From an uncultured bacterium (lineage in GTDB: Bacteria > Patescibacteriota > Microgenomatia > UBA1400 > PJMF01), in assembly GCA_903842795.1 (NCBI GenBank), contig CAIMNJ010000013.1, positions 69,302 through 133,301 on the forward strand: a DNA stretch of 64,000 nt, read 5' to 3'. Below are positions 12,295 to 49,605 of the stretch, piece after piece; the stretch's first letter is position 1; each line of letters opens with the position of its first letter. A program made the position numbers and the translations under genes. The notes below the pieces were generated by a model, which was not told the origin of the DNA, did no database searches, and saw nothing but the letters and a program-made list of their open reading frames with translations.

Positions 12295-12372
12295 GCACCC
12301 ATAGCTCAGTCTGGATAGAGCGTTTGTTTGCGGAACAAAAGATCGTGCGTTCGAATCGCACTGGGTGCACCA
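12295..12372 (+). tRNA. tRNA-Arg (anticodon GCG by manual fold), CCA encoded
   Basis: Manual cloverleaf: 7-bp acceptor GCACCCA/TGGGTGC, D-arm GCTC..GAGC, anticodon stem TTTGT/ACAAA with loop TTGCGGA, T-arm GTGCG-TTCGAAT-CGCAC, A73, CCA. Confidence 0.75.
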
Positions 12373-12454
12373 AATCACAATAACAGTACCAAACACCCCA
12401 CTCGGGTGTTTTTTTGTTTTTAGTGTTAGAATTTAGAAGTTCCTACAGATCTAA

Positions 12455-12536
12455 GGAAGGGTCGCATAGCGGCTATTGCATCAGCCTCGAAAACTGACGC
12501 CTTCGGGCACCGCGGGTTCGAGTCCCGCCCCTTCCG
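12455..12536 (+). tRNA. tRNA-Ser (anticodon CGA), type II with long variable arm, no encoded CCA
   Basis: Acceptor GGAAGGG/CCCTTCC, 3-bp D-stem, anticodon loop CTCGAAA (C31.A39 mismatch), variable arm GCC-TTCG-GGC, T-arm GCGGG-TTCGAGT-CCCGC, G73 discriminator. Confidence 0.7.
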
Positions 12537-12775
12537 CAAGTAACACAAATTATCTTGATAGACCCATCCTTTTACCGTATTAGCTTGATGCAGTCGACTT
12601 AATTTTTACCGAAAAAGGTTGATTCTCGTTTTACAGCCTGTATAAAACGAAACCTTGAGTTATTAGATACTAAAACTCATATTGAAAACCTCTTCTCATC
12701 TTTAATATAGTTGCGAAATGACGAACAAAAGAAATTTAAAGATTATCCAAATTGGCTTCTTTAATAAAATAAATT

Positions 12776-14071
12776 TTAGTGAAGGCTCAAAACCTTATTC
12801 TTCAAAACAAACCTTGTTTTCAGACAGGATAATATTTGTTGGCGGTCACTTGCTGATCCAGTTTTTAGAATATGTTCTAAATATGTTTTGGCCATTTCTG
12901 TATTGTTTAGTTTCACAGCAGATAGTTCAAGCTCTTCTAAATTTCCAGATAAATATTCTTGATTGAGTACCTCTGATCTTAATCTATGAAATTTCTCAAT
13001 GTCACTTCTAATTTGTTTCGAAATCTTTGCCTCATCAATTTTAATTTTAGGTAATAGTGTTAGCAGCTGATCGATTAAATCTTGCTCAGTAATATATGGC
13101 TCATTGCAATCGTAATCTACAGTTTTAGTACAGTGATAATAAATATAGGTAGCCTCTCCGCCATATTTTAATTTCTTATGTTTTTCCTCTGGAATAACTT
13201 GTGCTCCACATCTGCCACATGTACAAATTCCTCTAAAACCATAACCATTTTTCTTCCAAGTTTTTGGAGTGGTAATAAGTTGCTTTTGCACTTTCATAAA
13301 TAAATCGTGAGAAATTAGTGGTGGGTGAGTACCTTTATATAGCACTTCACCAAATTCAAACTCACCGTAGTAAAAACTATTCTTAAGAGTGGAGAAGACT
13401 TTGCTCAATGCTAATTGTTTCCCAGACCTCGTGGTAAATCCTATTCTGTCCAACCATCGTTTAATCATTCTTCCTGAATAATGCTCTTCGCCAACTTTCT
13501 CAAACATTTGGGTAACAAATGGTGCTCTCTCCTCATCAACAATTATTTCTCTAATGCGATCATTTTTAATAATATTTAGATATCCTATTGGAGCATAACC
13601 AGGTCTAATGCCCATTTCACACTTGGCTCTAAGGCCTCGTTTAACATTAACTCCACGATTATCATTTTCTAGTTTTGCTTGTGAGCAGAGAATCATGAGC
13701 AAAAACTTTTCATTTGGGCTATTGGTAAAACTTTGAGAATAGGTTTGGATCTTTAGCAACTTGCCTTGATCCATCAGATCAACTAGTGAGCCCAAATCGC
13801 CAGCATTTCTGCTTAGTCTATCAGGAGCCCAAGTTAAAATAGCATTATATTTTTCTTCTCTAATTTCTTTAAGTATTTCAACAAATAGTGGTCTAGCTCC
13901 AGAGGCTTTGGCCGAGTGACTTTCACGCTTAATTTCGACTATTTTGAGGCCCTCACGCTCGGCCAATGTGGTCATTTCTTTAATCTGGGAGTCGATAGAC
14001 ATTGTTTGTCGTTCATCAGACTCTGATGACTTTCTAGAGTAGAGGCAGTATTTGATTTCTGAGCTTTTCAT
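12776..14071 (-). CDS. large serine recombinase (resolvase domain + recombinase/zinc-ribbon domains)
   Basis: N-terminal YSRKSSESD...SIDSQ catalytic serine block, then recombinase domain with Cys cluster (CTCGRCG...CTK). Confidence 0.85.
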   Translation of the reverse strand: MKSSEIKYCLYSRKSSESDERQTMSIDSQIKEMTTLAEREGLKIVEIKRESHSAKASGARPLFVEILKEIREEKYNAILTWAPDRLSRNAGDLGSLVDLMDQGKLLKIQTYSQSFTNSPNEKFLLMILCSQAKLENDNRGVNVKRGLRAKCEMGIRPGYAPIGYLNIIKNDRIREIIVDEERAPFVTQMFEKVGEEHYSGRMIKRWLDRIGFTTRSGKQLALSKVFSTLKNSFYYGEFEFGEVLYKGTHPPLISHDLFMKVQKQLITTPKTWKKNGYGFRGICTCGRCGAQVIPEEKHKKLKYGGEATYIYYHCTKTVDYDCNEPYITEQDLIDQLLTLLPKIKIDEAKISKQIRSDIEKFHRLRSEVLNQEYLSGNLEELELSAVKLNNTEMAKTYLEHILKTGSASDRQQILSCLKTRFVLKNKVLSLH

Positions 14072-14156
14072 AGCAGTTTTCCTTCAATTAGTGAAGGTAC
14101 CGCAAAGAAATTAGAAGTCTAGTACAAAAACAAAAAACTAGTGATATTATTCATTT

Positions 14157-15125
14157 GTGAAAGAAAATGCTGAAACAGCAAAGAAATATCTAGAATTAAT
14201 TGCAGGTGGGTCTTTTTTATTTGTGTTGATGGGTTATTTTTTTGGATACTCAATTTTTTTCTCTTTTTTGCATTCCATGCTTGGGCTGCCGGTGTTAACA
14301 AGTATGATTTTTCCACCAAGTCAAATATTGTTTCTCGGTTATTTAATTATATTCAGTTTATTAATTTCAATTTTTGTTACTTCTCAGATTTATGGTAGAT
14401 CTGACGGAGTTTCTTTCTCAGAGCTAATATTTGCAGGAGTATTTTTAGGAATGTGGAGTTCTAACATCAAATTCCACGTGTTTCATTTTGAATTTTCTTC
14501 ATTATTAACTAAATTATTTGGCACATTAATTTTAATTATTATTGTTTTTGTATATTTTTATCTGTTACGTTTCAGAAATAAACGTAAAAATAAAAAATTA
14601 AAGCTAAAAAAGCATGAAGAATTTTTTTCAACTGCTTGGCTAGTGTATCTTTTCGCTATATTATTACCAATATTTTCCTCTAGAGGAGAACATATTATTG
14701 GTGCAAAAACTGATATTGTTACTATATTTTCAACTTTTTATTTTGAAATTTATTATGTTGTTTCTCTATTGGTTATTTTATTTAATTGGTTTATTGAGGA
14801 GAAAAACAATAAAAAGAAGTCTAAATTTGTAACTGGACTCATTTTTTTGACTACAATTTTATTTTTAATATATCAATTTTCTTCAATTTTTGGCAAAGCC
14901 ATAGCTGAGAGTTATATAAAAAACCAAGAAGGAATGTTTTCATCAATTTCATTTGGACTAAATAAAGAAATAGATATAAACGGTTCTAACAAAACTTCTA
15001 AATTAAACAATCTTTTTTTGCTATCAAAAGATAATGATTCTTATTATGTTTTTCAAATGAATCCAAATAAATTAATATCTATCGAATCTAGCACAGTTGA
15101 CTTCGCAACGATGCCGGATAATTAA
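14157..15125 (+). CDS. polytopic membrane protein, hypothetical; very AT-rich gene
   Basis: Multiple hydrophobic segments; composition visibly far more AT-rich than its neighbours. Confidence 0.45.
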   Translation: MKENAETAKKYLELIAGGSFLFVLMGYFFGYSIFFSFLHSMLGLPVLTSMIFPPSQILFLGYLIIFSLLISIFVTSQIYGRSDGVSFSELIFAGVFLGMWSSNIKFHVFHFEFSSLLTKLFGTLILIIIVFVYFYLLRFRNKRKNKKLKLKKHEEFFSTAWLVYLFAILLPIFSSRGEHIIGAKTDIVTIFSTFYFEIYYVVSLLVILFNWFIEEKNNKKKSKFVTGLIFLTTILFLIYQFSSIFGKAIAESYIKNQEGMFSSISFGLNKEIDINGSNKTSKLNNLFLLSKDNDSYYVFQMNPNKLISIESSTVDFATMPDN

Positions 15126-15129
15126 GGTT

Positions 15130-16581
15130 TTATATCCACCCAATTTGTGGCTCATATTCGCTTAAATATTCTCTGTGTTTTGAACAAGCCAAAGTAAAAG
15201 CGTCAGCTAAATCATCAAACCTCTCGCTACCAAAGAAAAGAAGCTGATTAATGAGTTCTTCAGCTCCTTTTCTTGGAAATAAGATTTGACCTTTGCTAAC
15301 TTGCGTTGATGCCGACCAAAGCCTTGTGCTTTTATCTTGTCCTTTAATAGGAACACCTTCTACTGGTAGGTCATGGCTTTTTAATTGGTCTACTAAGGCT
15401 ACTTGCTGACCAGCTTGTTCAACAATAATTTTGACCGTATGAGATCTGCCAATCGTCTTGTAAATGCTAGCTATTAAATCAATCAACTCTGGACTATTCC
15501 ATTTACCGCTATAAATAGTTTCGTGGATATACATCTTTTTATCATCGTGACCAAAGTCATAAAATGATGAGCAAATGATCGCAGTCTTATCAGCTTCTTT
15601 AGTAGTAGAAAAGGCTGGATCGATGCTAATAACGTAATAAGACAAATACTTATCATCGGGAAATTGGTCGTAATACTGAATCCACTCTGGCTTAATAATT
15701 TGCTCATTACTATTAATTGCCTTCAGTAAATATTCTCTAGCAAAATCAATTTCAGTAAGACTGTTTTTAAGCCTATCGACTTCTTTTTGGTTTGGATATT
15801 TTCCTTGCCATAAGCAGCTGCCATCTTCATTAAGAAGCGGGTATTCGCGATAGTATCCAATCCTTTTGCCACTTTGAATCGATTCTCTAAGACGCATCAT
15901 CGCAGAATCTTTATGAACTAGATTGCCGATAAAAACATATGAAGTTTCTGGATTGCCAATTGGAATTAGCTCACCATTAACAAACTCCCAAAGTTTATCT
16001 CTTTGTTCTAAGGTCTTCGCTGACTGCACGTCCTCAATATCGTCAGCAATGATTAAATCTGGTCTATAAGCACCATGTCTAATTCCACGAATTGATTCAC
16101 TCACTGAGACCGCAGAAATTCTTGCCTTATGTTCTTGCAATACTAAGCTAGCAGAATTCCATTCTGAAGTTTCAGCTGTCAGAAATGGCCCAAAATCATT
16201 AATTAGTAGTTCATTAGTTTCTAATTCTTGTCTGATGTTATAAAGAGTTTGACTTGATCTACTTTGGCTTTGGCAAACAATAACCACGAATTTTTTCTGA
16301 TTGGTACAAATAGTGTTCCAAAGAGGCAAAATTAAGGAGCAGAGTGTTGACTTTGCACTACCTCTAAAAGCCACTATGCAGCTTAAACCAGGTTCTTTAT
16401 TAGTTATTAGGTCAATAATCTCACGATGAAATGCTGGCTGTTTATATTGCAGAAAATGAGGAAAGTACAAAGTCAGAAACCACTGGAAACTTTGTTTAGC
16501 CAGCATTCTACGACCAACTCTTGTTTGAATTAAATCATCGATAGCTTCAAATTTATTTTGCATACTAGTCACCTCCCTCAT
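15130..16581 (-). CDS. phage terminase large subunit (ATPase + nuclease)
   Basis: Walker-A-like AFRGSAKST, Walker B/acidic LIIADDIED, C-terminal RNaseH-like nuclease region; adjacent small subunit gene. Confidence 0.7.
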   Translation of the reverse strand: MREVTSMQNKFEAIDDLIQTRVGRRMLAKQSFQWFLTLYFPHFLQYKQPAFHREIIDLITNKEPGLSCIVAFRGSAKSTLCSLILPLWNTICTNQKKFVVIVCQSQSRSSQTLYNIRQELETNELLINDFGPFLTAETSEWNSASLVLQEHKARISAVSVSESIRGIRHGAYRPDLIIADDIEDVQSAKTLEQRDKLWEFVNGELIPIGNPETSYVFIGNLVHKDSAMMRLRESIQSGKRIGYYREYPLLNEDGSCLWQGKYPNQKEVDRLKNSLTEIDFAREYLLKAINSNEQIIKPEWIQYYDQFPDDKYLSYYVISIDPAFSTTKEADKTAIICSSFYDFGHDDKKMYIHETIYSGKWNSPELIDLIASIYKTIGRSHTVKIIVEQAGQQVALVDQLKSHDLPVEGVPIKGQDKSTRLWSASTQVSKGQILFPRKGAEELINQLLFFGSERFDDLADAFTLACSKHREYLSEYEPQIGWI

Positions 16582-16984
16582 TAGAAGACATCAGCTCCAA
16601 AGCAGTTAAAACTTTTTCTTGCTGTTCAGGAGTTAAAGATTCCTGTGGAGCTATCGGAGTGAGCTCCACTCTTGTTCGATAATCTGGATGGTTATGTTTT
16701 AGCCAATAAGCAATGGCTTGGAAACTTTTATCTTTAATGCTGCTAATTAGCTGAGACTCAGCCATGTCGTTAACCATGGCTTTGCCTTCAGATAAAGAGC
16801 CTCGAGCTTTTTCAGCGAATTCAGCATCGTCTTTGCACCAGCGATAAAAAGTTGCTCTACCAACGCCAGCCCTTTCACAGGCAATCTGAACGATTGGCAT
16901 TTTCCTAAGTTGCTCAATTAGTTCTAATTTGTCATTAGCGATGCGATCGACAATTGTTATCTTTTGTTTAGTTTGCTTTGGCAT
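16565..16984 (-). CDS. phage terminase small subunit (HTH)
   Basis: HTH ACERAGVGRATFYRWCKDD typical of TerS; overlaps the TerL start. Confidence 0.6.
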   Translation of the reverse strand: MPKQTKQKITIVDRIANDKLELIEQLRKMPIVQIACERAGVGRATFYRWCKDDAEFAEKARGSLSEGKAMVNDMAESQLISSIKDKSFQAIAYWLKHNHPDYRTRVELTPIAPQESLTPEQQEKVLTALELMSSNEGGD

Positions 16985-16985
16985 T

Positions 16986-18317
16986 TTAGGAAATCCTTTC
17001 TGCCTTAATACCAGTTAACTTTTCGTATCGTTTGCAAATCACTTCAGCATAAGTTGGACATTTTTCCATAATGTAGCAACGACGCTTCATTTTTGTGGCT
17101 GCGATTAGAGTCGAGCCACTTCCACCAAATGGTTCAAAAACTAAATCACCTCTTTTGGTGAGAACCTTAATGTATGGAATTAGAATCTCCGTAGGTTTGG
17201 TGCCAAAAACTACTCCCTGACCTGAGCTTTTCTCGTCGCTAGCGTTAAATTCAATAAAGTCAGTTGGCTGATATTTTTTACCTTTCTCGTAACCTTCCCA
17301 CTGAGGCTTTCCAGAAATGGCATAAAGAGCTGTCTGATATTCTTCTTGCAAACCATCCAGTTCTTCATCGTGGTTGTATTCAACGTCAGCTTCTTTGGAA
17401 GCACCGACCATTGCAATGTCATGCTTACTAAAGAATTTATACTTGGCACTAAATCCCTGATGACGATTAGGAATGTGCCAAACAATCATGTTTTTAACTT
17501 TCCAATATTTTTCCATCTCTACCCAGATAGTGCGCAGGTTTTTCCAGTTCTCGTAAACAATAATTGAGAAATGTTCAGCCTGCACCTTGGCAATATTAGC
17601 CATCCATAGTTCAGTAAAGTTGTCTGGAAGCACGTCAGTCATTAAATACTTGCGATCACGCTTATATCCGAAGCCTTCAGTGGCCTTACCGTGCTTAGTT
17701 TTGCCATGTAGATAATCCAAAATGTATGGTGGGTCAGTAAGAGTTAGATCCACTTTCTCATTGCCGATTAATTTCAGAACATCTGCCTCTATAGTAGAGT
17801 CGCCGATCATTAATTTGCTCTCACCTAGTTGATAGACTTCACCATTCTTCATTTTGATTTCATTAATGTTGAGTTTGGCTAATTCTTTCTTTAGATCAAA
17901 TTGCTCTGGGACAGCTAAATCTAAATTAAAAATGTTGTCTAGCTCTTCGCTACTAAAACCAACATCTTCCAATATTTCTGGAGCGAAGCCCTTTAGTAAT
18001 TCCCAATCCCATTCACCAGTTGCTCGATTAAGTCTTAGATTTAGATCTTTCTCTTTCTCCAAATCTGGGATGTCTAGGTAGACAACTGGCACTTCATTTA
18101 TGCCCAGCTCTTTGGCAGCCGCAATTCTCATGTGGCCACCAATAAGAGTGTTTAGTCTTTCAGAAGTAGAATTTGCGATAACTGGGTCAACGAAGCCATA
18201 AAGACTTAGGCTTTCCTTTAGTTTCTCCAAGGCTTCTTTATTCCACTTGCGCGGATTGTATGAGGCGAGATTTAGTTTCTCGATCTTAACTTGTACTATG
18301 TCTAGCTTATTTGGCAT
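16986..18317 (-). CDS. ParB-N nuclease-like domain fused to DNA N6-adenine/N4-cytosine methyltransferase (phage-type orphan MTase)
   Basis: N-terminal ParB box GGHMRIAAAKELGINEVPVV; MTase motif IV DPPY (TLTDPPYILDY) before motif I FEPFGGSGST (beta-class order). Confidence 0.8.
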   Translation of the reverse strand: MPNKLDIVQVKIEKLNLASYNPRKWNKEALEKLKESLSLYGFVDPVIANSTSERLNTLIGGHMRIAAAKELGINEVPVVYLDIPDLEKEKDLNLRLNRATGEWDWELLKGFAPEILEDVGFSSEELDNIFNLDLAVPEQFDLKKELAKLNINEIKMKNGEVYQLGESKLMIGDSTIEADVLKLIGNEKVDLTLTDPPYILDYLHGKTKHGKATEGFGYKRDRKYLMTDVLPDNFTELWMANIAKVQAEHFSIIVYENWKNLRTIWVEMEKYWKVKNMIVWHIPNRHQGFSAKYKFFSKHDIAMVGASKEADVEYNHDEELDGLQEEYQTALYAISGKPQWEGYEKGKKYQPTDFIEFNASDEKSSGQGVVFGTKPTEILIPYIKVLTKRGDLVFEPFGGSGSTLIAATKMKRRCYIMEKCPTYAEVICKRYEKLTGIKAERIS

Positions 18318-18484: not shown

Positions 18485-20824
18485 GTGAATATGGATAAAG
18501 AAGCAAGTGCGAGACTCATTATTAACAAACTGCTTGAACAAGCTGGTTGGGTTCTGGTTAATAGTGATCAAATAAAAGCGAACGTTGATGTTGAAAATCA
18601 CCTAGTAGATGATGAGGAAAAGGAAAACAGTGGTTTTGCTGACTATGTCCTTTACGGACAAGATAGAAAACCAGTTGCTGTTATTGAAGCCAAGAGAAGT
18701 CAAATCGATCCCTTAGACGCTAAAGAGCAGGCGCGCATTTATGCTCAACAGCTAGGTGTTAGATGGGTGCTACTTTCTAATGGTGAAAAACACTACCAGT
18801 GGAATATTGAAGAAGGTAATCCAGAAGAAATCACTCGTTTTCCATCACAGGAGTCACTTGAATCAAACGTAAGCATTAAAAGAGATGCTGATTCACTAAT
18901 TAGTGAAGTTGTTGGCGATGATTATGTAGCTCTCACTCAAAACCCAATTTATCGACAAGATCCACGCTGGCAAACTGCAGATGGTAGAAAGCAAATGATT
19001 CAAACAGATAAATTGCGTTTTTTACGTGATTATCAATTGGATGCTATCAAATCAATTCAAAAAGCAGTTTCTACTGGCAAGAAAAGTTTTCTTTTTGAAA
19101 TGGCTACTGGGACAGGTAAGACCTTAACTGCTGCTGCTATTATTAAACTATTTATCAAAACTCAGAATGCTTCAAGAGTTTTATTTTTAGTTGATCGTTT
19201 GGAATTAGAAAATCAAGCCTTTAAAAATTTCCGTGATTATCTAAAACCAGATATCACGACTGTAATTTACAAAGAACATAAAGACGATTGGCACAGAGCT
19301 GAAGTAGTGGTGACTACTGTGCAAAGCATTATGAATGATGCTAAATTCCAAGATATTTTTAATCCTAATGATTTTGATTTAATTATCTCTGACGAAGCTC
19401 ATCGCGCTATTGGTGGTGATGGTGCTAGTCGTAGAGTTTTTGAATATTTCTCTGGATACAAACTAGGTTTAACAGCAACTCCAAAAGATTATCTTAAGAA
19501 TCTAGATACCAGCAAACTGGCAGAAACAGATCCTCGCCAGCTTGAAAAACGCACCCAACTCTCAACTTACGAAATCTTTGGTTGCGCTAGTGGCGAACCA
19601 ACTTTTCGCTACACTCTGCTAGATGGAGTTAAAGATGGATATCTTATCAATCCATATGTGCTCGACTGCCGTACTAAAGTAACCACCCAATTACTTTCCG
19701 ATGAAGGCTATTCTGTGGCTAATAACTCAGATGATAGTGGTGATGAAGAGGCCATCTACCATGCTGGTGATTTTGAGAAGAAGTTTTTTAGTGAAGATAC
19801 CAATCGCAAATTTGTCGAACTATTTTTTAGGAAAGCTCTGCGTGATCCAATTTCTAAAGAAATTGGCAAAACTATTGTTTTTTGTGTTAGCCAAAATCAT
19901 GCCAGAAAAATTACTCAACTGATGAATGAATATGCTTATGAATATTTTAATGGGTTATACAACTCAGATTTTGCCATTCAAATTACTTCCAATATACGCG
20001 ATGCTCAACCATTTACAATTAAATTTTCCAATAATAATCTAAGTGGAAACTCTCGTCATTTAGAAAATTACAAAACTAGCAAAACTAGAGTTTGTATCAC
20101 TGTCGGTATGATGACAACTGGTTATGATTGTCCAGATTTGCTAAATATTTGTTTGATGAGACCAATTTTTTCACCTCAAGATTTTGTGCAAATCAAAGGT
20201 CGCGGTACTCGTAAACACATCTTTAATTATTCTGAACGTCTAAATGGTCAAGAAGTTGAACAAAATGCAAATAAAGAGCGATTTAATCTTTTTGATTTCT
20301 TTGCAAACTGTGAATTTTTTGAAAATGATTACCCATACGATGAAACGCCACAGTTGCCAAAGATTAGAGAAAAAACTGTTGATGGTAAAAATGGTTTGAA
20401 CGGTAACATAATAGTTGATTATGGTTTTTCTCCAGAAGAATTTGCTCATAATCGTAAATCAGCAGATCAAATTGCAGATATTAAGGAAAAACAAATTGGC
20501 TATGAAGGCATGAATATTGATTCTAAGCTTTACAACATGTTGCGAGACAAAGCTAATTCGGCAGCTTTAAAAAAATCTGAAATAGAAAAACAAGCTCAAG
20601 ATTGGTGGAGTGAATTTTCTAGACAACTTACAGTAACTTATGATTTGATGGATGAAATTAAATCTCTTTTTGATTTAGTGGTTTTTGACGAACAAATTTT
20701 CCAAGATCTAAGCAATCACGAATTTAGTAAATATGCTAACATGCCGGAATTGTGGAATTTACTTAATTCATTAGGAAGAACCTGGATTGATCGAGTTGTA
20801 AATTTTATTAAACAGAAAAAATAA
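18485..20824 (+). CDS. hsdR: type I restriction enzyme R subunit-like protein (HSDR_N nuclease + SF2 helicase), compact 779 aa
   Basis: N-terminal HsdR_N PD-(D/E)xK region (ADYVLYG...IEAKR), helicase motif I FEMATGTGKT, motif II ISDEAHRA, motif VI QIKGRGTR. Confidence 0.75.
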   Translation: MNMDKEASARLIINKLLEQAGWVLVNSDQIKANVDVENHLVDDEEKENSGFADYVLYGQDRKPVAVIEAKRSQIDPLDAKEQARIYAQQLGVRWVLLSNGEKHYQWNIEEGNPEEITRFPSQESLESNVSIKRDADSLISEVVGDDYVALTQNPIYRQDPRWQTADGRKQMIQTDKLRFLRDYQLDAIKSIQKAVSTGKKSFLFEMATGTGKTLTAAAIIKLFIKTQNASRVLFLVDRLELENQAFKNFRDYLKPDITTVIYKEHKDDWHRAEVVVTTVQSIMNDAKFQDIFNPNDFDLIISDEAHRAIGGDGASRRVFEYFSGYKLGLTATPKDYLKNLDTSKLAETDPRQLEKRTQLSTYEIFGCASGEPTFRYTLLDGVKDGYLINPYVLDCRTKVTTQLLSDEGYSVANNSDDSGDEEAIYHAGDFEKKFFSEDTNRKFVELFFRKALRDPISKEIGKTIVFCVSQNHARKITQLMNEYAYEYFNGLYNSDFAIQITSNIRDAQPFTIKFSNNNLSGNSRHLENYKTSKTRVCITVGMMTTGYDCPDLLNICLMRPIFSPQDFVQIKGRGTRKHIFNYSERLNGQEVEQNANKERFNLFDFFANCEFFENDYPYDETPQLPKIREKTVDGKNGLNGNIIVDYGFSPEEFAHNRKSADQIADIKEKQIGYEGMNIDSKLYNMLRDKANSAALKKSEIEKQAQDWWSEFSRQLTVTYDLMDEIKSLFDLVVFDEQIFQDLSNHEFSKYANMPELWNLLNSLGRTWIDRVVNFIKQKK

Positions 20825-20837
20825 ATAATTCAAACCT

Positions 20838-23399
20838 ATGCTAACTACTGCTACTAAGAAAAAAATTGATAATGCCAGAGATATTTTGGTTGGAAAAATT
20901 CCTATGCCTACTGCTCAAGTAGAGCAGATTACTTTAGCTTTGATCTATAAATTCATGTCTGACATGGACAAAAAGGCCAAAGATTTGGGAGACGCTGATG
21001 GCTTTTTTGCCAATGGTTATGAGAAATATGCTTGGGAAAAATTGATGGATAAAGCCCTACCCGCTCGTGATCGAGTTTTGCTTTACCGTGAAGCTCTGGA
21101 AAAAATGGCTCTTAACCCTTACATTCCTCAACTATTTTGCGATGTTTTTCGCAATGCTTCATTGCCTTTTAATGATCCTGAAACCCTCAAGCTGTTTCTA
21201 GATGTCATTGATCAATTTGAATATGACCATAGCGAAGAGCTTGGCAACGCTTTTGAATATTTATTACAGGTGATGGGTAGCCAGGGTGATGCAGGCCAAT
21301 TCCGAACACCACGTCATATCATTGATTTTATTGTTCAAGTCGTTGAGCCACAAAAAACTGATAAAATTCTTGATCCTGCTTGTGGAACTGCTGGTTTCTT
21401 AATTTCGGCTTACAAATATCTAAAAGAAAAAGGTTTATCTAGTGATGAAATGAACCAAATTTCTGAAAACTTTGTTGGCTATGATATTTCTCAGGACATG
21501 CAACGCTTATCATTGGTAAACATGTATTTACATCATTTACCCAACCCCCATATCTATGAATATGACTCGTTAACTAGCGAAGATAGGTGGAATGAAAATT
21601 TTGATGTTATTTTAGCTAATCCACCATTTATGTCACCAAAAGGCGGCATCAAACCACATAATCATTTTTCTGTGCCATCAAAACGTGCTGAAGTGCTTTT
21701 TGTCGATTATATTATGGAGCACTTAAATGGTAAAGGAAAAGCAGGAGTGATTGTGCCGGAAGGCATTATTTTTCAAAGCCAAAATACATACAAAGCTTTG
21801 CGCAAAATGATGATTGAAGAAAATTTTTTGTGGGCTGTGGTATCTTTACCGGCTGGAGTTTTTCAACCATATTCTGGTGTAAAGACAAGCATTCTTTTGT
21901 TTGACAGAGAAATTGCTAAGAAAACTGACAAAATCTTATTTGTGAAAGTAAATAGCGATGGTTTTGATCTTGGTGCTCAGAGACGAGAATCAGATAAAAA
22001 TGATTTGCCAGTTGCTCGAAACTTACTTTTGAAGTTTAAACAAGCAATTCTAAGTGGAAAAGAGCTCAGCTTAGATGATGCTCTTGAGATGAGCGGTGGC
22101 CCCAGTGACAAAGACATGGTGCATAGCTATGGCTTTGATCTGAATGCCAATAGCAATATTAAGTTAGATCAAATTGTCAGTAAAGCCTACGATGAAGTGA
22201 CCAAAGACAGCATTAAAGAATCAAATTATGATTTGAGCGTGGATAAGTATAAGGTAAGTGCTGTTGGTAATAGCGAGAAATGGGCAACGGTCACATTAGG
22301 CGAAATCTGTACTTTATTGCAAAGAGGAAAATCACCAAAATATGGTGAAAGTAACTTTCAAATAATCAAGTCAGGTCAAGCGAGAGGGTATTTCACATTT
22401 GATTTCAGCACGAAATACTTTGTGGATGAAAATTTTAAGATTGACCATAGAAAACTTGAAAAAGGAGATCTTCTAGTAAATTCCACTGGCGTGGGTACAG
22501 CTGGAAGAGTTACTTTATTTGATTTAAACGGTGATTATCTTGCAGACGGACACATAACAATTGTCAGACTTAATAAAAAAATTGCTAATTCAAAATTTGT
22601 TCTTTATGTTTTGGCGAACTATTATGGTTTCAAAACAATAGAAAAGATGGCAACTGGCAGCGGTGGACAAATCGAACTCTCGTTAGACACAATTCGATCC
22701 TTAAAAATTCCATTACCTCCAATCTCGATTCAAGAAGAAATTATTGAAGAAATCGACCAATTCAAAAAAATCATCGATGGGGCAAAACAAATTTTAAATA
22801 GTTGGAAGCCAATAATAAAAGTTGATTCAAAGTGGGAGGAAGTAAGACTAGGGGATATATGTGATGTTAGAGATGGAACACATGAAAGTCCAAAGAAAAT
22901 TTTAATTGGGTATCCTCTAATTACTTCAAAGAATATTAAATCTGGAAAGATAGATTTTTCTAATGTTAGTTATATATCTAATGAAGATTTTAATAAAATA
23001 TCTAAGCGTTCTCATGTTGATATTGGTGACATCATCATGCCAATGATAGGAACAATTGGAGGAGCATGCTTAATTAGATCTAAGGAAAAGGAATTTGCAA
23101 TTAAAAATGTTGCTCTTTTTAAAAAATCAGAAAAAATTATTCCTGAATTTTTATTAAATACATTAAACTCTGATGTTTTTAGAAAAATGTTTGAAAATAA
23201 ATCATCCGGTTCTACTCAAAAATTTGTATCACTCTCAGTTTTAAGAGATCTTAAAATTAAAACTCCATCTTTAGAAGTACAAAAAGAAATTGTTGGTAAT
23301 ATTCAAATGGAACTATTAATTATAGAGGGTGTTAAAGAATTAATTAATAATTATCAACAAAGGAGCAAGAAGAAAATTGAAGAAGTTTGGAAAAAATAG
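20838..23399 (+). CDS. type I RM methyltransferase-specificity fusion (HsdM N6-adenine MTase + two HsdS target-recognition domains)
   Basis: MTase motif I LDPACGTAGFL and motif IV LANPPF; C-terminal half has two TRD repeats (LGEICTLLQRGKSPKY... / LGDICDVRDGTHESPK...) with conserved HsdS spacer helices. Confidence 0.8.
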   Translation: MLTTATKKKIDNARDILVGKIPMPTAQVEQITLALIYKFMSDMDKKAKDLGDADGFFANGYEKYAWEKLMDKALPARDRVLLYREALEKMALNPYIPQLFCDVFRNASLPFNDPETLKLFLDVIDQFEYDHSEELGNAFEYLLQVMGSQGDAGQFRTPRHIIDFIVQVVEPQKTDKILDPACGTAGFLISAYKYLKEKGLSSDEMNQISENFVGYDISQDMQRLSLVNMYLHHLPNPHIYEYDSLTSEDRWNENFDVILANPPFMSPKGGIKPHNHFSVPSKRAEVLFVDYIMEHLNGKGKAGVIVPEGIIFQSQNTYKALRKMMIEENFLWAVVSLPAGVFQPYSGVKTSILLFDREIAKKTDKILFVKVNSDGFDLGAQRRESDKNDLPVARNLLLKFKQAILSGKELSLDDALEMSGGPSDKDMVHSYGFDLNANSNIKLDQIVSKAYDEVTKDSIKESNYDLSVDKYKVSAVGNSEKWATVTLGEICTLLQRGKSPKYGESNFQIIKSGQARGYFTFDFSTKYFVDENFKIDHRKLEKGDLLVNSTGVGTAGRVTLFDLNGDYLADGHITIVRLNKKIANSKFVLYVLANYYGFKTIEKMATGSGGQIELSLDTIRSLKIPLPPISIQEEIIEEIDQFKKIIDGAKQILNSWKPIIKVDSKWEEVRLGDICDVRDGTHESPKKILIGYPLITSKNIKSGKIDFSNVSYISNEDFNKISKRSHVDIGDIIMPMIGTIGGACLIRSKEKEFAIKNVALFKKSEKIIPEFLLNTLNSDVFRKMFENKSSGSTQKFVSLSVLRDLKIKTPSLEVQKEIVGNIQMELLIIEGVKELINNYQQRSKKKIEEVWKK

Positions 23400-23415: not shown

Positions 23416-23682
23416 ATGAAAATAATGAAATTAGATAAAGATCTGAGGGAACTGATTAAAGGAGTAACTAGTCCATATGTTTCTCAGAGAGATCCATCAT
23501 TTGGTTCTGCACAGATCACTAACATCCAGTCTATTAGAAATTTAGAAAAGACTATTAAAAAATTAGACAAACAAAATTCAGTTTTGAGTGTAAGAATGTA
23601 TTTCCTAGCAGTAATAAGTGGATTATTGGTATTTATTCAATTAGTTGAATATGCGATAAAGATATTCAACTTTTTTAAATAA
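23416..23682 (+). CDS. small hypothetical protein with C-terminal TM helix
   Basis: ORF only; hydrophobic C-terminus. Confidence 0.3.
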   Translation: MKIMKLDKDLRELIKGVTSPYVSQRDPSFGSAQITNIQSIRNLEKTIKKLDKQNSVLSVRMYFLAVISGLLVFIQLVEYAIKIFNFFK

Positions 23683-25099
23683 TTTTTTTCCAAATCTCCA
23701 CCATTGCCAAGGTATCTCTTTCACAATATTTAAGCAGTGCTTCTTTAATATCACTTCTCACATTCTCTGACATGCTTTTTCCAGCATTGATCATGTCCCA
23801 CCAAGTAATCATTGCCAGATCACCCTTACCAATCGCCAAATCTTTATAACTTAAATTCGGCACCAAAACAGGCAAAACCTTTTTAATTGACCAACTACCA
23901 CTGAAAGCCGGATCAATGTAATAACCTTTTCTTACTATTTCTGCCAAATCATAAATGCGTTCATTTACATCTAATAAAAAGTCACTAAATTCAGGATACA
24001 TTTTTGCTAGTTCAGCATTCCTGCTAGTTTCAAAAGTTTTGTTCCACACAATTACACTGCCATGATCTCCAATGTCACTTCGTAATTTCTTAACTAGTTC
24101 TATAGCTGGATCTCCAGTTCTATCTGCCAAATACTCACTGTGAGTCATTTCACCTTTTTCATTTACCATATGGAGAGAATATTGAAAAACCATTTGTTGC
24201 TGAGGATGATAACCTGGATATAAAGGTAAAGCTAAATTGCAGGTCTCATAATCTAAGAAATATAAAGGATAAGTTAATTTTCCCAGTGATTCTTTAACTG
24301 CTTCCAAATCAATAATAGCTTTGTTTTCTTTAACAGCTCTGACATGATTTTCTTGCAAAGGACTCAGTTTAAAATCCTCCGGAATATCTGAAATTTTAAT
24401 AATGCCATCTTCTATTAAAGAATTAGCTTTCTTTTGACTTAAATTTGGCAAAGTGTAGATTGAATGCTCTGGTAAATTAGGATGACATAGATTTGGACAA
24501 GGACATTTGTCTGGAGTGTAACAATGGGCAACTTTACTTGGATCATCCTGACTAATATCTGCCAATGCTTTTTCTCTTAGTTCCCTTACTTCATCTGCTA
24601 TTGATCTACATCTGTCAGTAATGTCTTCTATGGCAAACATTTGATCAAAAACATAATGACCATCGTAAATATAGTTGGCATTTAAATGTAATAGATAGAC
24701 GTGTCCAACAGGCTTTTCTTTTTCAACAATCAACATTTGAAAAGTCGCATCGTAGATATGTTCTTTTTTAACTTCAGTTGAGCTTTTGATTTCATAGATA
24801 TCTGTTTTACCTGTAGCAGCAATTTCTATTGTTTCATCAGCTATAGCTTCAAAATTGCCATCAACAAAGACTGGTTGGTGGCTGCCAGTATCGCCAACTT
24901 TGGCAGTAGATATGAAAATTTCTGTGAAATATTGACTAGCTAATTTCTCTGCTTTTTGACCTTGCAACATAATAAATTGGTCAAAATCAGAAGGAGCTGT
25001 TCTCTCAAGTAAATTGTGCTTTTTAGCCCACAAATGTCTTGGTGCTTCTTGGTAGAGGAGAAAGTCTGATTTGGTAAGTTGCATAGCTAAATTGTACAA
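23675..25099 (-). CDS. DUF2779-like protein, probable PD-(D/E)xK (RecB/Cas4-like) nuclease family
   Basis: Recalled DUF2779 signature around FLDYETCNLALPLYPGYHPQQQMVFQYSLH; Cys cluster CYTPDKCPCPNLCHP; no database check possible. Confidence 0.5.
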   Translation of the reverse strand: MYNLAMQLTKSDFLLYQEAPRHLWAKKHNLLERTAPSDFDQFIMLQGQKAEKLASQYFTEIFISTAKVGDTGSHQPVFVDGNFEAIADETIEIAATGKTDIYEIKSSTEVKKEHIYDATFQMLIVEKEKPVGHVYLLHLNANYIYDGHYVFDQMFAIEDITDRCRSIADEVRELREKALADISQDDPSKVAHCYTPDKCPCPNLCHPNLPEHSIYTLPNLSQKKANSLIEDGIIKISDIPEDFKLSPLQENHVRAVKENKAIIDLEAVKESLGKLTYPLYFLDYETCNLALPLYPGYHPQQQMVFQYSLHMVNEKGEMTHSEYLADRTGDPAIELVKKLRSDIGDHGSVIVWNKTFETSRNAELAKMYPEFSDFLLDVNERIYDLAEIVRKGYYIDPAFSGSWSIKKVLPVLVPNLSYKDLAIGKGDLAMITWWDMINAGKSMSENVRSDIKEALLKYCERDTLAMVEIWKKII

Positions 25100-25148
25100 T
25101 CAAAATAGGTACAAAGATAGCAAAAACTATCTGCTATAGTAGAGATAT

Positions 25149-26096
25149 ATGTCATTCTTTAACCAAGATCTCGACTCACTCCTCAAAGAAGTAATTCTTT
25201 TGCTTCAAACTTCAGATTACGCCAGTTCTTCACTCATTCAAAGACGCTTTTCTATTGGTTATGCTCGTGCTGCCAGAATAATAGATCAACTGTATGAATT
25301 AGGTTTTGTTGGTGCTCCCGATGGATCTAAACCAAGAGAAATATTGATTAAAGATATACCAGAAAATTTTGATTTAGAAAAGTATCTCCAAGATATGGTG
25401 CTACTTAAAAGTACTCCCACAAGTGAATGGAAAAGAGTCAAAGAAGCTATGGATGGCCATATTCTTAAGCTAGGTAAGAACCAAAAGAAAAAATTAGTCA
25501 CTCTAGATTTAGAAAAGTATGGCAACTTAATTTTAGTTGGTTCTGAGCTTACTAATATTTCTAAACTAACAAACAAAATTCTCAGTCAATTAGTTGAAGA
25601 AAAATCTCCTGAAGAACTAAAGTTTATCGTGGCCGATCCTTCATCAAATCAACTTGAAATTAAAGATGGCGACCCACATCTATTAACACCAGTGATAGAT
25701 AATCCAGGAAAATTAGTGCCAGCTCTTGCTTGGTTGTCTATGGAAGTTGATAAGAGAAGAAAAGCAGAGAGCTCAGAATTTAATTTGCCAATTCTACTAT
25801 TTATTAATAATTTTAATGAATTTAATTATTACGCTGCTGCGGAGATTCAAGATCGTATGTCTAGAATTCTCAAATTAGGTAGAAATGTAAAAGTTTACTG
25901 TATTATCTCTTTTGACTATCTAGATCCAAACATTAAAAAAGATCTCTTTGTTAGTGTTGGTGCTAAAATTGTTTTTAAGCCTACCACCGAGCACATGGCT
26001 CGTAACAACGGCATTCCAGAATCAATTGAACTCACTAGTCCAGATGAAGCTATTCTAGAGACAATGTATGAGGGGAGAGAAACTTTTTCCATCTAA
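25149..26096 (+). CDS. FtsK-like protein: N-terminal FtsK-gamma (KOPS-binding winged helix) + degenerate RecA-like motor domain
   Basis: SSSLIQRRFSIGYARAARIIDQLYELGFVG matches the FtsK gamma domain; downstream LKFIVADP...PHLLTPVIDNPGKLVPALAWLSMEVDKRRK and later blocks align to the FtsK beta domain, but Walker A is LVGSELTNISK and Walker B is FINNF. Confidence 0.7.
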   Translation: MSFFNQDLDSLLKEVILLLQTSDYASSSLIQRRFSIGYARAARIIDQLYELGFVGAPDGSKPREILIKDIPENFDLEKYLQDMVLLKSTPTSEWKRVKEAMDGHILKLGKNQKKKLVTLDLEKYGNLILVGSELTNISKLTNKILSQLVEEKSPEELKFIVADPSSNQLEIKDGDPHLLTPVIDNPGKLVPALAWLSMEVDKRRKAESSEFNLPILLFINNFNEFNYYAAAEIQDRMSRILKLGRNVKVYCIISFDYLDPNIKKDLFVSVGAKIVFKPTTEHMARNNGIPESIELTSPDEAILETMYEGRETFSI

Positions 26097-26113: not shown

Positions 26114-26710
26114 ATGTACAGCATTAATGAATATAATAATTTAGTTTCAAAATATGGCTCTTTTGCTAGTTGGGCAATTTGGAATTATGAGGATTCAAAA
26201 GACACCTCTATTATTGATAAAAATTTAGATCAACTGCATTCGAGATACGTTCTTCTTGGATTAAACATGTCTCGTTTATTAAATAGACCAGCTTGGTTTA
26301 ATTTTCATGACAACACTCATTCACGTAAAGTAAGATATGCCTGTAATGATAATGAATTGCGTGGCTCTTATATGACAGATCTTTTTAAAGACATGATCGA
26401 TCCAAGCTCTTCAAATTTTGAAAAGAATGTTACAAAAAAGGATATCGATGCGAATATAAAATTATTTAATCAAGAAATGGTAGACGTTAAAATAAATGAA
26501 GACACAAAATTTATTATTTTTGGTCAATCAACTTTTAGATTTTTTAATCAATATTTTAAACAAGATTATGGAAATGAAGTGATTTCTATTCCTCACTATT
26601 CTAGTAGAGGTACAGACAAAGAATGGGTAGAGGGTTTTTGGAAGAAGCTGAACATTAATTTAAATTTTGAATCTATTGTTAATAAATATATCAAAATAGA
26701 TCATTTATAA
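26114..26710 (+). CDS. hypothetical protein (198 aa)
   Basis: ORF with RBS context; no recognised motif. Confidence 0.4.
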   Translation: MYSINEYNNLVSKYGSFASWAIWNYEDSKDTSIIDKNLDQLHSRYVLLGLNMSRLLNRPAWFNFHDNTHSRKVRYACNDNELRGSYMTDLFKDMIDPSSSNFEKNVTKKDIDANIKLFNQEMVDVKINEDTKFIIFGQSTFRFFNQYFKQDYGNEVISIPHYSSRGTDKEWVEGFWKKLNINLNFESIVNKYIKIDHL

Positions 26711-42834: not shown

Positions 42835-42847
42835 TTGAAGGAAAAAT

Positions 42848-43243
42848 ATGACAGAGAAAAAAAATTATAGAATTATGATTGTCGAAGATGAGCCAATGCT
42901 TTTACGAGCTATTGTAACTAAGTTTGAGAAAATTGACATTGAGGTTATTGCTTGTGCCACTGGTCAAGAAGGTTTGGATTATTTAATCAAAGGAAAAAAA
43001 TTACCTGATGCTATTTGGTTGGATTATTATCTGACAGATATGAACGGTCTAGATTTTATTCATCAACTTAAGACACACAAAAGCTCTTTAGATATTCCAG
43101 TAATTGTTGTTTCAAATTCGGCAAATGATGATAATAAGAAAAATATGCTTGCACTTGGTATAAAAAAGTATATTCTGAAAGCAGATTACCGATTAGAAGA
43201 AATTGTAGATATACTAAAGGCAGTGATAAAGGAAAATTTATGA
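42848..43243 (+). CDS. single-domain response regulator (CheY-like receiver)
   Basis: IMIVEDEP...WLDYYLTDMNG...KKYILKADY receiver signature. Confidence 0.75.
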   Translation: MTEKKNYRIMIVEDEPMLLRAIVTKFEKIDIEVIACATGQEGLDYLIKGKKLPDAIWLDYYLTDMNGLDFIHQLKTHKSSLDIPVIVVSNSANDDNKKNMLALGIKKYILKADYRLEEIVDILKAVIKENL

Positions 43244-43593
43244 AAAAAATTTTGATAGCTGAGGATGATCAATTCTTAGCAAATGCTTATCGCATTAAAT
43301 TTGAAAAAGCAAATCTAGAAGTGCGAGTTTGCAGTGATGGTGAAGAGGCTTTGGAAGTAATTAAAACTTTTGCACCAGACTTAATTTTGCTAGACTTAAT
43401 GATGCCGAAAGTGGATGGTTTTGCTGTTTTAGAAAATATAAAAAGTAATGAAAATACCAAAAATATAAAGGTAATTGTAGCTTCCAATCTTGGTCAGAAT
43501 GAAGATGTTGAGAAAGCTAAGAATTTGGGAGCAGACGGCTATGTCGTCAAAAGTGATATGTCGATTTCAGACATACTCAAGCTTGTAGAGTAA
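43240..43593 (+). CDS. single-domain response regulator (CheY-like receiver)
   Basis: ILIAEDDQ...LDLMMPKVDG...GADGYVVKS receiver signature; start overlaps the upstream stop. Confidence 0.75.
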   Translation: MKKILIAEDDQFLANAYRIKFEKANLEVRVCSDGEEALEVIKTFAPDLILLDLMMPKVDGFAVLENIKSNENTKNIKVIVASNLGQNEDVEKAKNLGADGYVVKSDMSISDILKLVE

Positions 43594-43594
43594 T

Positions 43595-45259: not shown

Positions 45260-45262
45260 AGA

Positions 45263-46318: not shown

Positions 46319-46321
46319 AAT

Positions 46322-46474
46322 ATGAAAAAAACAAAAACTCAAAGCAAGTCGAAGGCAAAAGCCCCAGCTTGCAATTGTTGGTGTTGTAGAGTGGTTCCAA
46401 AACCATTGGATATCTTTATTTTGCTTGGTGCATCTATTTTAATTGTTTATGTTTTTATCAAAATGGCAGTCTAG
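46322..46474 (+). CDS. small (50 aa) Cys-rich membrane protein, hypothetical
   Basis: Strong SD (ggaggttaaaat-ATG), CNCWCC cluster followed by one TM helix; too short for the ORF track. Confidence 0.3.
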   Translation: MKKTKTQSKSKAKAPACNCWCCRVVPKPLDIFILLGASILIVYVFIKMAV

Positions 46475-49561: not shown

Positions 49562-49605
49562 TAGACAAAGTTCTGTAAAAATGCCATACTAAAAAAAGCT
49601 TAAAT

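Follow-up and report, generated by a model that had tools for sequence, protein, structure and literature searches.

A gamma-first FtsK paralogue without catalytic motor residues, linked to DUF2779 nuclease genes in Patescibacteria

FtsK pumps DNA; its gamma domain reads the polarity signals of the chromosome and also acts as the switch for Xer recombination. The locus described here raises the question of what such a domain does when it stands first in a short protein whose motor core has lost its catalytic residues and whose divergent neighbour encodes a nuclease. "The window" designates the whole stretch of DNA that was analysed (64 kb); no other FtsK-like ORF was found in it. The gene and its domains are given below.

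25149..26096, + strand: gene of a gamma-first, ATPase-dead FtsK paralogue, 315 aa (ORF, Pfam, family alignment, AF2)
25167..25349, + strand: FtsK gamma winged-helix domain, aa 7-67 (Pfam E 2.7e-22; matches to the gamma structures PDB 2j5p/2ve8)
25350..25460, + strand: variable linker, aa 68-104 (mean pairwise identity 23%; pLDDT 60-80, the minimum of the model)
25461..26093, + strand: FtsK beta-type RecA-like domain without catalytic residues, aa 105-315 (Foldseek, profile)

An in-frame TAG at 25140-25142, 9 nt 5' of the ATG, makes an upstream extension with an intact alpha/beta region impossible, and the homologues all share this start; a longer ORF reaching an intact P-loop, which the earlier note had considered as a refutation, was thus rejected. 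The two profile matches that it had suggested looking for were both found: FtsK_gamma (PF09397; 78.7 bits for a cut-off of 30.6), which confirms the N-terminal gamma domain, and FtsK_SpoIIIE (PF01580; aa 105-204, E 2.7e-11). The family profile aligns with Pseudomonas aeruginosa FtsK (2iut) over both domains (beta, E 3.5e-35; gamma, E 1.6e-15). The structure prediction, also suggested, gave a confident AF2 model (pLDDT 87, pTM 0.77) with the fold of the FtsK motor: it superposes on 6t8b_B over 243 columns (rmsd 2.2 A, E 1e-13, Foldseek). The proposed block-for-block match to the beta domain is therefore backed by structure for the C-terminal 210 aa. EccC/EssC domains (PDB 4nh0, 4n1a, 4lya) are among the best Foldseek neighbours of the model. 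The protein had been called a permuted FtsK; the gamma-first order stands, but the layout is gamma-linker-beta and not a strict circular permutation of alpha-beta-gamma, because the alpha domain is missing (no PF17854 match in Pfam). No N-terminal hydrophobic domain or membrane anchor was found in the model of the 315-aa protein.

The positions that bear on catalysis are the following.

25539..25562, + strand: degenerate Walker A, G131-S-E-L-T-N-I-S138, with Ile137 at the P-loop Lys position (FtsK alignments)
25791..25820, + strand: degenerate Walker B, I215-L-L-F-I-N220-N221-F-N-E224, with N-N for D-E (column counts)
25881..25883, + strand: Arg245, aligned with the arginine finger (PaFtsK R620; 2iut alignment)

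The Walker A stretch is aligned to G-T-T-G-S-G-K-S of FtsK and does not fit GxxxxGK[ST]; the second Gly and the Ser/Thr are gone across the family, and the Lys column reads A13 V10 K9 I8 T4 S4 L3 among 55 members. The Walker B stretch (LLFINN) does not fit hhhhDE; in the same 55 members, the Asp position is N45/S5/H4 and the Glu position S25/G15/I5/N3. The degeneracy of both motifs reported in the earlier note thus holds at Ile137 and at N220-N221, and the loss appears from the alignment to be family-wide and ancestral. Since the residues for ATP hydrolysis are missing, no hydrolysis is expected and the protein is predicted not to drive dsDNA translocation alone, which agrees with the earlier view of an inactive motor that is not a pump by itself.

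The other residues were mapped with published FtsK residue identities, including PaFtsK R620 (PMC7321959). The arginine-finger position is R25, K21 (R/K in 46/55). The loop I DNA-contact equivalents are mostly kept (K657 position, K27/R6; R661 position, R36/K7); in loop II, most members have Tyr instead of the DNA-contact Arg (R632). The FtsK-specific D163, E199 and R203 are invariant, H177-L-L-T-P181 and W195 are conserved at 90% or more, K264 is kept in 54/55 members and the FtsK-specific C-terminal block SPDEAILETM stays fixed. In the gamma domain, QRRxxIGYARAARxxD is conserved, with Q31, R32, G37, A39 and R40 invariant. The family shares with FtsK/SpoIIIE (PDB 2ius, 2iut, 6t8b) a homologous beta core and gamma winged helix, the D of IDPK, PHLLTP, an EMERR-like E..R, the basic residues of loop I and, in most members, a basic residue where FtsK has its arginine finger. 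It differs from FtsK/SpoIIIE by a gamma domain that is N-terminal instead of C-terminal, by the lack of the alpha domain, membrane anchor, long linker, loop II Arg and Walker B Asp-Glu, and by a Walker A Lys that is mostly replaced (K in 9/55); at only about 315-345 aa, the protein is also short.

The gene, which had been treated as an isolated odd paralogue, belongs to a diversified family. Patescibacteria metagenomes contain at least 55 homologues that have the same architecture and the same catalytic-residue loss and keep the FtsK-specific motifs, with full-length ORFs at 35 independent loci. The ORFs are intact (295-388 aa) and have identical boundaries in dozens of lineages; the alignment has 14 invariant columns and 18 others conserved at 90% or more. 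The family thus consists of real, selectively maintained, non-catalytic FtsK paralogues. It is confined to Patescibacteria and was not described before. Mean pairwise identity is highest in the gamma domain (56%; beta, 44%; linker, 23%), and the recognition-helix motif GYAR[AS]A[RKS][LI][LI]D is the same as in the canonical FtsK of these phyla. Unlike typical defence sensors, the gamma domain is highly conserved and not fast-evolving, an observation that counts against the partner model given below. A wider class of short gamma-first proteins is also degenerate (about 29 checked clusters at 50% identity). Putative intermediates include gamma-beta-gamma proteins with a live P-loop and dead beta-gamma proteins in canonical order.

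A scan of contigs for the gamma motif gave 596 confirmed FtsK-like stretches (best-segment identities of 51-65% in several), almost all of them canonical FtsK with one true member (locus L007); these were reused as a control set. No family member was found in IMG/VR viral contigs. In the GenBank phage collection and in a plasmid collection, no record covers at least 80% of the protein, and the matches are all canonical-order FtsK, in two pieces; a phage or plasmid origin was ruled out by these searches.

The gene is flanked by the following genes.

18485..23399, + strand: type I restriction-modification system beside the pair, with HsdR and a fused HsdM-HsdS (Pfam, PADLOC)
23675..25084, - strand: DUF2779 protein, 469 aa, recurrent genomic partner (PF11074, E 7.9e-40)

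The DUF2779 protein of the window also matches RNase_H_2 (Pfam E 0.0025), its sequence shows the motifs D..EIK and DYE, and its orthologue in L106 matches Cas_Cas4 as well. By its sequence it is a probable Cas4-like PD-(D/E)xK nuclease fused to an RNase H-fold 3'-5' exonuclease, in line with published interpretations of the domain (PMC13621843, PMC3985635) and with the PD-(D/E)xK-like neighbour of the earlier note. In a minimal Mycoplasma, the gene for DUF2779 is reported to be quasi-essential (PMC13621843).

The co-occurrence of the two genes, proposed as a check, proved strongly positive. A DUF2779-type/Cas4-like PD-(D/E)xK gene lies at most 6 kb upstream in 15/20 family loci (those in which 2.9 kb or more of sequence was available upstream) and in 0/79 canonical FtsK loci (Fisher p = 7e-14); it was absent from this 6-kb interval in 5/20 loci. 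The linked nuclease gene is invariably on the 5' side of the FtsK-like gene. A subfamily that shares only 29-33% identity with the window protein shows the linkage as well. The two genes frequently have restriction genes between them and vary in orientation, so they do not form an obligate operon.

Restriction-modification genes are found in or beside most family loci, and DNA-repair genes recur near them (UmuCD, MgsA, RecA/RecX, LexA-like, Pyr_excise). The FtsK-like gene of the window lies in a variable island that also contains a type I restriction system and the remnant of a prophage, in accordance with the defence/mobile island of the earlier note. In a close relative (TypA 91% identical), the corresponding MgsA-SpoU interval has no nuclease/FtsK-like pair; the pair thus behaves as accessory, not core. 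Other assignments were tried and rejected. Among known defence systems, no PADLOC model matches the FtsK-like protein, its DUF2779 neighbour or the ORF that lies downstream. This downstream ORF (198 aa) is not a conserved partner; it is unrelated to the same-sized ORFs of L004 and L005 and is missing in L001. Genes for the alpha domain or for a live beta domain are not universal partners (six and two loci). A recurrent upstream protein of about 210 aa is not a divergent alpha domain (hhalign probability 0.1%). No T7SS genes were found in the neighbourhood of the FtsK-like gene.

The reading that is preferred, held tentatively and with rather less than even confidence, is that the protein may be a non-motor, sequence-reading DNA-binding partner of the linked nuclease. 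The gamma domain would bind a short DNA motif of the host type (KOPS-like). Oligomerisation would fall to the dead beta core, which would also keep some of the DNA-pore contacts, namely the equivalents of the loop I Lys/Arg. A putative motif-binding gamma domain and an oligomerising, DNA-contacting beta core would therefore provide a sequence-dependent seat on DNA, from which the protein would work with the linked DUF2779 enzyme. It could direct or restrain end-processing on DNA with or without the motif, according to a logic akin to that of Chi/RecBCD, and could serve self-DNA repair, foreign-DNA restriction or both. The self/non-self sensing or regulation suggested in the earlier note is a candidate role. 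Ring formation on DNA is uncertain, as judged from the residues, because there is no alpha domain and most members have Tyr in place of the loop II Arg (R632).

RecBCD/AddAB with Chi is an end-processing nuclease conditioned by a short, over-represented and polar host motif. The parallel is a functional analogy only, entirely inferred and implying no homology to the family; unlike in RecBCD/AddAB, the motif would be read by a separate FtsK-derived protein, and the nuclease would be a fusion of the Cas4-like/DEDD type.

Among the closest systems described are those in which HerA/FtsK ATPases were captured to counter invaders, including DndH (Rakesh, Aravind & Krishnan 2024, PMC10853773). Like the family, they combine an FtsK-derived domain from the segregation machinery, a winged helix and a restriction-endonuclease-fold nuclease in defence islands, and they sometimes include a 3'-5' exonuclease, as the DUF2779 partner does. 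Their ATPase is an active pump that is frequently fused to the nuclease or comes with Orc/Cdc6 ATPases, whereas in the family the ATPase is dead, the gamma domain stands first and DUF2779 is a partner protein of its own. No mention of a gamma-first dead-ATPase architecture was found in the passages of PMC10853773 that were consulted. The linkage of a nuclease and a winged helix in a defence-island context, by which such systems are recognised, was found here (15/20 vs 0/79 loci). The gamma domain is also reused outside FtsK as a presumptive DNA-site reader in phage proteins (PHROGs 22882, 13700), such as the small terminase of Bacillus phages Sam46/Sam112, in which it is N-terminal (PMC8190038); there it is fused to Terminase_2 or stands alone, whereas in the family it is fused to the FtsK beta core.

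EccC/EssC proteins of type VII secretion resemble the family in having FtsK-type domains in which catalysis was traded for regulation or binding. EccC has tandem repeats in one membrane protein, binds secretion substrates and has neither a gamma domain nor a DNA context; the window protein differs in being a single soluble domain pair with one beta domain, linked to nuclease genes, and it scores 33 and 17 bits with the NCBIfam EssC and EccC models (cut-offs of 778 and 347).

These degenerate FtsK-like neighbours with regulatory roles lead to the first alternative, which is possible but doubtful: the protein would modulate an FtsK-type motor, its dead beta domain co-assembling with live beta domains (of the host FtsK or of a separate protein) and donating an arginine finger and a fixed number of gamma domains. 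Non-catalytic subunits behave likewise in other mixed ATPase rings, and the arginine-finger position is basic in 46/55 members despite the dead ATP site of the protein itself. At six loci a stand-alone FtsK alpha gene lies directly upstream with a 4-nt overlap (Pfam E 2.5e-10), and in L106 and L111 the next gene downstream codes for a beta domain whose GSGK[ST] P-loop is intact. However, of about 36 loci only six have the alpha partner and only two the live beta, these loci are nested and not basal in the NJ tree, the window has neither partner, and the nuclease linkage is left unexplained.

It is unlikely that the two genes have no functional link and merely frame an insertion hotspot for defence genes, the FtsK-like protein having an independent role such as chromosome organisation or segregation. 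The cargo between them does vary in L122-L125 (C5 and EcoRI-type methylases, GmrSD, HNH), the downstream synteny is conserved in L122, L123 and L125, and the window and L001 have a common flanking synteny (DUF2177, HAD). Against this, their proximity outlasts changes of orientation and order and is kept between subfamilies of only 29-33% identity in unrelated genomic backgrounds, the pair behaves as accessory (it is missing from the MgsA-SpoU interval of the close relative), and the spacer that they share is conserved in the window lineage.

A role in recombination or in a mobile element is quite improbable. The gamma domain would contact an Xer-type or other recombinase and control island integration or excision, or dimer resolution, without translocation. 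Large serine recombinases are encoded near the gene in the window, L005 and L091, a tyrosine-recombinase-like ORF adjoins the L007 gene (by inspection), and VirB4/TraC-like genes lie 7-10 kb away in L004. Recombinases are nevertheless present in a minority of loci only and are not adjacent; no member was found in IMG/VR, no full-length phage or plasmid match was obtained, and the strict conservation of a 210-aa dead beta core would be left without a reason. In the alignment, the window protein has QTSDYA (aa 21-26) where the Escherichia coli gamma domain has the basic TEKRKA, which is presumably the XerD-contacting loop. This role of TEKRKA was not found in PMC5052618. On the favourable side, XerD activation is achieved by FtsK gamma alone (abstract of PMC3130261), and mobile elements are known to encode their own Xer activators, e.g. 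phage XafT (PMC6744903).

The features of the divergent spacer bear on the next reading.

25071-25100: promoter-like site, overlapping TTGTAC-N11-GTACAA
25085..25148: divergent intergenic region shared with the DUF2779 gene, 64 nt, unusually conserved in comparison with L001
25092..25114: conserved inverted repeat TTGTAC-N11-GTACAA, overlapping the -10-like TACAAT
25115..25132: palindrome AGATAG-N6-CTATCT, unique in the window (expected 0.01)

The spacer had been given as 49 bp; it is 64 nt, because the divergent neighbour starts at ATG 25084, as on other contigs. In the window lineage both genes are divergently transcribed from this strongly conserved region. It is identical to that of the L001 orthologue at 56/64 nt (88%), above either flanking gene (FtsK-like CDS, 73% nt identity; proteins, 68% for FtsK-like and 41% for DUF2779). 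TTGTAC-N11-GTACAA is unique in the window (expected 0.04) and identical in L001-L003; it is confined to the window/L001 lineage and is not found upstream of other family members. The palindrome AGATAG-N6-CTATCT is present as the earlier note had it, but its role as a conserved shared operator was rejected: L001 reads AGACAG...AGATCT, both arms being altered without compensation.

A plain transcription factor, whose winged helix would repress the divergent promoter and whose dead core would be a ligand or oligomerisation module, could account for the conserved spacer and for an inverted repeat placed over a promoter-like -10 element; it is very improbable. What the gamma domain of FtsK recognises, as a trimer, is an asymmetric 8-mer and not a dyad operator. 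The inverted repeat is restricted to one lineage, many loci have no relevant divergent gene, and XRE-type regulators are encoded separately. A decaying pseudogene or an annotation artefact of a truncated ftsK, to which the lost catalytic motifs and the lack of alpha and membrane domains could point, is refuted by the family-wide conservation of ORFs, boundaries and columns, the confident fold and the stop just upstream of the start, and is hardly credible.

The partner reading, in which the FtsK-like protein would seat itself on DNA and condition the linked nuclease, can be extended to the whole family. The extended form is speculative and rather doubtful: the family would confer sequence specificity, as a non-catalytic subunit, on a nuclease system that had gone unrecognised in Patescibacteria; the gamma domain, detached from the motor, would let DUF2779 distinguish host from foreign DNA, as an FtsK-derived functional equivalent of the way RecBCD recognises Chi; and some lineages would have a split, heteromeric FtsK-like ring (alpha, gamma-dead beta, live beta).

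A conserved family of this kind would be a new use of the FtsK machinery, in which the reader, moved to the front, and the motor shell are kept, catalysis is dropped and the whole travels with a Cas4-like nuclease. It gives a testable handle on DNA-end processing or self/foreign discrimination in the genome-reduced, uncultivated Patescibacteria, on the function of DUF2779, and on the origin of pseudo-ATPases from ring translocases, of which plausible intermediates are seen here.

The FtsK-like ORF (25149-26096, + strand) encodes 315 aa. An in-frame TAG (25140-25142) lies 9 nt 5′ of its ATG, so a real start further upstream, with an intact alpha/beta region, is ruled out. In Pfam, FtsK_gamma (E 2.7e-22; 78.7 bits against a cut-off of 30.6) covers aa 7-67 and FtsK_SpoIIIE (E 2.7e-11) aa 105-204; the FtsK and EssC matches in NCBIfam all lie far below threshold. 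Among solved structures, E. coli and P. aeruginosa FtsK are matched in swapped order (beta, query 106-208; gamma, query 6-67). The AlphaFold2 model, for which the family alignment was the input, has high confidence (pLDDT 87, pTM 0.77). In it the C-terminal domain fits the FtsK motor 6t8b_B (243 columns, 2.2 A), which identifies the entire C-terminal 210 aa as an FtsK beta domain; the next structural matches are EccC/EssC and TcpA.

Residues were mapped by profile alignment to P. aeruginosa FtsK (PaFtsK, chain 2iut), whose residue roles are those of Jean et al. 2020 (PMC7321959).

Catalytic and DNA-contact positions: PaFtsK; window protein; column counts over 55 family members.
P-loop GTTGSGKS; G131-S-E-L-T-N-I-S138, with Ile137 at the Lys position; Lys column A13 V10 K9 I8 T4 S4 L3
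Walker B D-E; N220-N221; N45 at Asp, S25/G15 at Glu
Arg finger R620; R245; R25, K21
Loop II R632; Y257; Y37
Loop I K657; E281; K27, R6, E8
Loop I R661; R285; R36, K7

Judged from these residues by the usual criteria, the window protein cannot be an ATPase; it may retain a trans-acting arginine and does appear to keep part of the DNA-pore surface. The earlier note had described an N-terminal gamma winged helix, a beta motor domain behind it and degenerate Walker A/B motifs; all three are borne out by the profile searches, the predicted structure and the mapping.

Among 5.8 billion proteins searched, about 70 clusters (90% identity; 307-361 aa) share this Pfam pair, and there are further, more distant ones. 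Few carry source names, which read 'FtsK/SpoIIIE domain-containing protein [Patescibacteria group bacterium]' or a JGI FtsK/SpoIIIE-like label; wherever the source names the organism, the family is confined to Patescibacteria metagenomes. None was found in IMG/VR, nor any full-length match to the window protein among the phage or plasmid records searched. The family alignment (55 sequences, as low as 29% identity to the window protein) lacks the catalytic Asp-Glu throughout; the P-loop Lys is kept by nine distant members only, themselves devoid of the P-loop glycines and Ser/Thr. Invariant are D163, E199, R203 and G131 and, in the gamma recognition helix, Q31, R32, G37, A39 and R40; conservation reaches at least 90% at H177-L-L-T-P181 and W195. 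By region, members are most alike in gamma (mean pairwise identity 56%), less so in beta (44%) and least in the linker (23%). Catalysis was lost ancestrally and purifying selection continues.

The family stands apart from canonical FtsK in a neighbour-joining tree. The best 150 matches of an HMM scan of 1.84 billion cluster representatives include many single-stretch gamma-first proteins (276-388 aa). The 29 sequences checked from that list are all short and gamma-first, have degenerate P-loops and lack the Walker B D-E, except three database relatives: P0217, with two gamma stretches in Pfam around a live beta (AGTTGSGKS, VIDELAD), and P0183 and P0188, soluble proteins with dead beta then gamma, in canonical order. 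The three could represent sister forms or intermediate stages of the rearrangement, P0217 being a plausible intermediate. The literature search found no paper with a gamma-first dead-FtsK architecture; the closest precedents are the N-terminal gamma of phage small terminases and the degenerate FtsK-like domains of EccC.

In one subclade, family members have FtsK-type partners. Directly upstream in six family loci (L100, L101, L102, L106, L108, L118) is a gene for a separate FtsK alpha domain that carries a hydrophobic tail, overlapping the family gene by 4 nt in 4/6; directly downstream in L106 and L111 is a beta domain of 237-250 aa with an intact GSGK[ST] P-loop.

Split FtsK-like operon (in order: alpha with hydrophobic tail where present, gamma-dead-beta, live beta; live beta in these two loci only):
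L106, 8798-11106
L111, 2-1515

Such partners would suit a mixed ring, in which the family protein joins or modulates a live FtsK-type ring; they are rare and nested in the tree, and are therefore not taken as the general mode. This reading is considered rather unlikely. A 94-aa ORF of L110 (1364-1648), which overlaps the family gene at its end, resembles FtsK_gamma weakly (E 0.0035, below cut-off).

The divergent neighbour starts at ATG 25084 (469 aa) and is a DUF2779 protein (Pfam, E 7.9e-40), in agreement with the PD-(D/E)xK-like nuclease proposed earlier: DUF2779 is described as joining a Cas4-like PD-(D/E)xK nuclease to a 3′-5′ exonuclease of RNase H fold (PMC13621843, PMC3985635). A DUF2779 gene is quasi-essential in JCVI-syn3.0. 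Neighbours were clustered over 36 non-redundant family loci and searched with nuclease HMMs (DUF2779-type, ~500 aa; Cas4-like PDDEXK_1, ~250 aa). Upstream sequence of 2.9 kb or more is available at 20 loci; a nuclease gene of either type lies within 6 kb upstream in 15 of them and downstream in none; canonical FtsK has the same nucleases at 0/79 loci (1.3 Mb, mostly the same phyla; Fisher p = 7e-14). The suggested co-occurrence with DUF2779 thus holds, and the linkage is strong and polar. It extends to the distant subfamily (4/4 loci examined, L122-L125), where methylases, GmrSD or HNH genes lie between nuclease and family gene. This cargo differs per genome (C5 methylase, LexA-S24-methylase fusion, GmrSD, GmrSD_N-HNH, EcoRI-type methylase), and the interval resembles a hotspot at which defence genes are inserted. 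That the two genes flank a hotspot and have no functional link is considered unlikely.

Other recurring neighbours are helicase/restriction genes, XRE regulators, DUF2130 (adjoining DUF2779 in L004, L122, L123), and two occupants of the slot directly upstream of the family gene: a trypsin-like peptidase (Trypsin_2; L089, L100, L105, L116) and an unannotated ~210-aa protein with a conserved CNFIIF...FxQFW motif (L001, L004, L105, L116), which is unrelated to FtsK alpha. DNA-repair genes (UmuCD, MgsA, RecA/RecX, LexA-like fusion) are repeatedly nearby.

The window TypA is 72-73% identical to its closest named proteins (Woesebacteria, Pacebacteria, Gottesmanbacteria), as would fit a Patescibacterium of Microgenomates type. 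L126, a close relative whose TypA is 91% identical, is collinear with the window as far as MgsA (12.15 kb) and again from the SpoU methylase (57.4-58.2 kb); between them lie ~8 kb in L126 vs ~45 kb in the window (12150-57400), which marks the window region as accessory. The FtsK-like gene sits in this accessory island, a very large variable region given the small genome.

Features of the island, by window coordinates.
12295-18317: tRNA-Arg and tRNA-Ser, then the serine recombinase-to-methylase block
12776-14071 (-): large serine recombinase, separated from TerL by a 322-aa ORF
15130-16581 (-): TerL
16565-16984 (-): TerS
16986-18317 (-): ParB_N-N6/N4 methylase
18485-23399: type I restriction system; its HsdR is short (779 aa), and an HsdM-HsdS fusion occupies a single 853-aa ORF; the divergent DUF2779 gene and FtsK-like gene follow
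26114-26710: orphan 198-aa ORF, starting 18 nt past the end of the FtsK-like gene; a T4 endonuclease V-like glycosylase is also downstream
39314-50592 (+): ORF block with strong positive GC skew (up to 0.27)
43595-45259: T2SSE/PilB-type ATPase, within that block

The block at 12295-18317 resembles the remains of a prophage or satellite at a tRNA site, with no capsid genes identified among the ORFs examined; that at 39314-50592 probably represents an operon of type IV pilus or competence type. Searches of Pfam, NCBIfam, PADLOC, PHROGs and PDB sequences gave no match to the 198-aa ORF, which is carried by identical metagenome contigs and missing at the orthologous locus L001.

L001 has DUF2779, the FtsK-like gene, DUF2177 and HAD in the window order. 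Protein identity is 68% for FtsK-like and 41% for DUF2779; the FtsK-like CDS is 73% identical in nucleotides and the divergent spacer 56/64. This spacer, given as 49 bp in the earlier note, is 64 nt long (25085-25148) from the true DUF2779 start. The palindrome (25115-25132) proposed there as a shared operator is unique in the window, but both arms are changed in L001 without compensation, and the proposal is not supported. A TTGTAC-N11-GTACAA repeat (25092-25114), overlapping a -10-like TACAAT, occurs once in the window (expected 0.04) and is identical in the orthologue; it is absent upstream of other family members. The control region is conserved in the window lineage.

A recombinase activator is improbable, and a transcription factor slightly more so; a pseudogene is scarcely credible against an alignment of 55 sequences that is degenerate family-wide and yet conserved. 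The interpretation in the earlier note is supported in part: the missing catalytic residues speak against a pump acting on its own, and the nuclease linkage holds; a role as sensor or regulator is conjectural. The reading preferred here, tentatively, is a non-pumping, sequence-reading DNA-binding protein: gamma would bind DNA sequence-specifically, the dead beta core would oligomerise, and the protein may be functionally coupled to the DUF2779 nuclease, which it would guide or restrain. The analogies are Chi with RecBCD, and 'HerA/FtsK capture' (PMC10853773).
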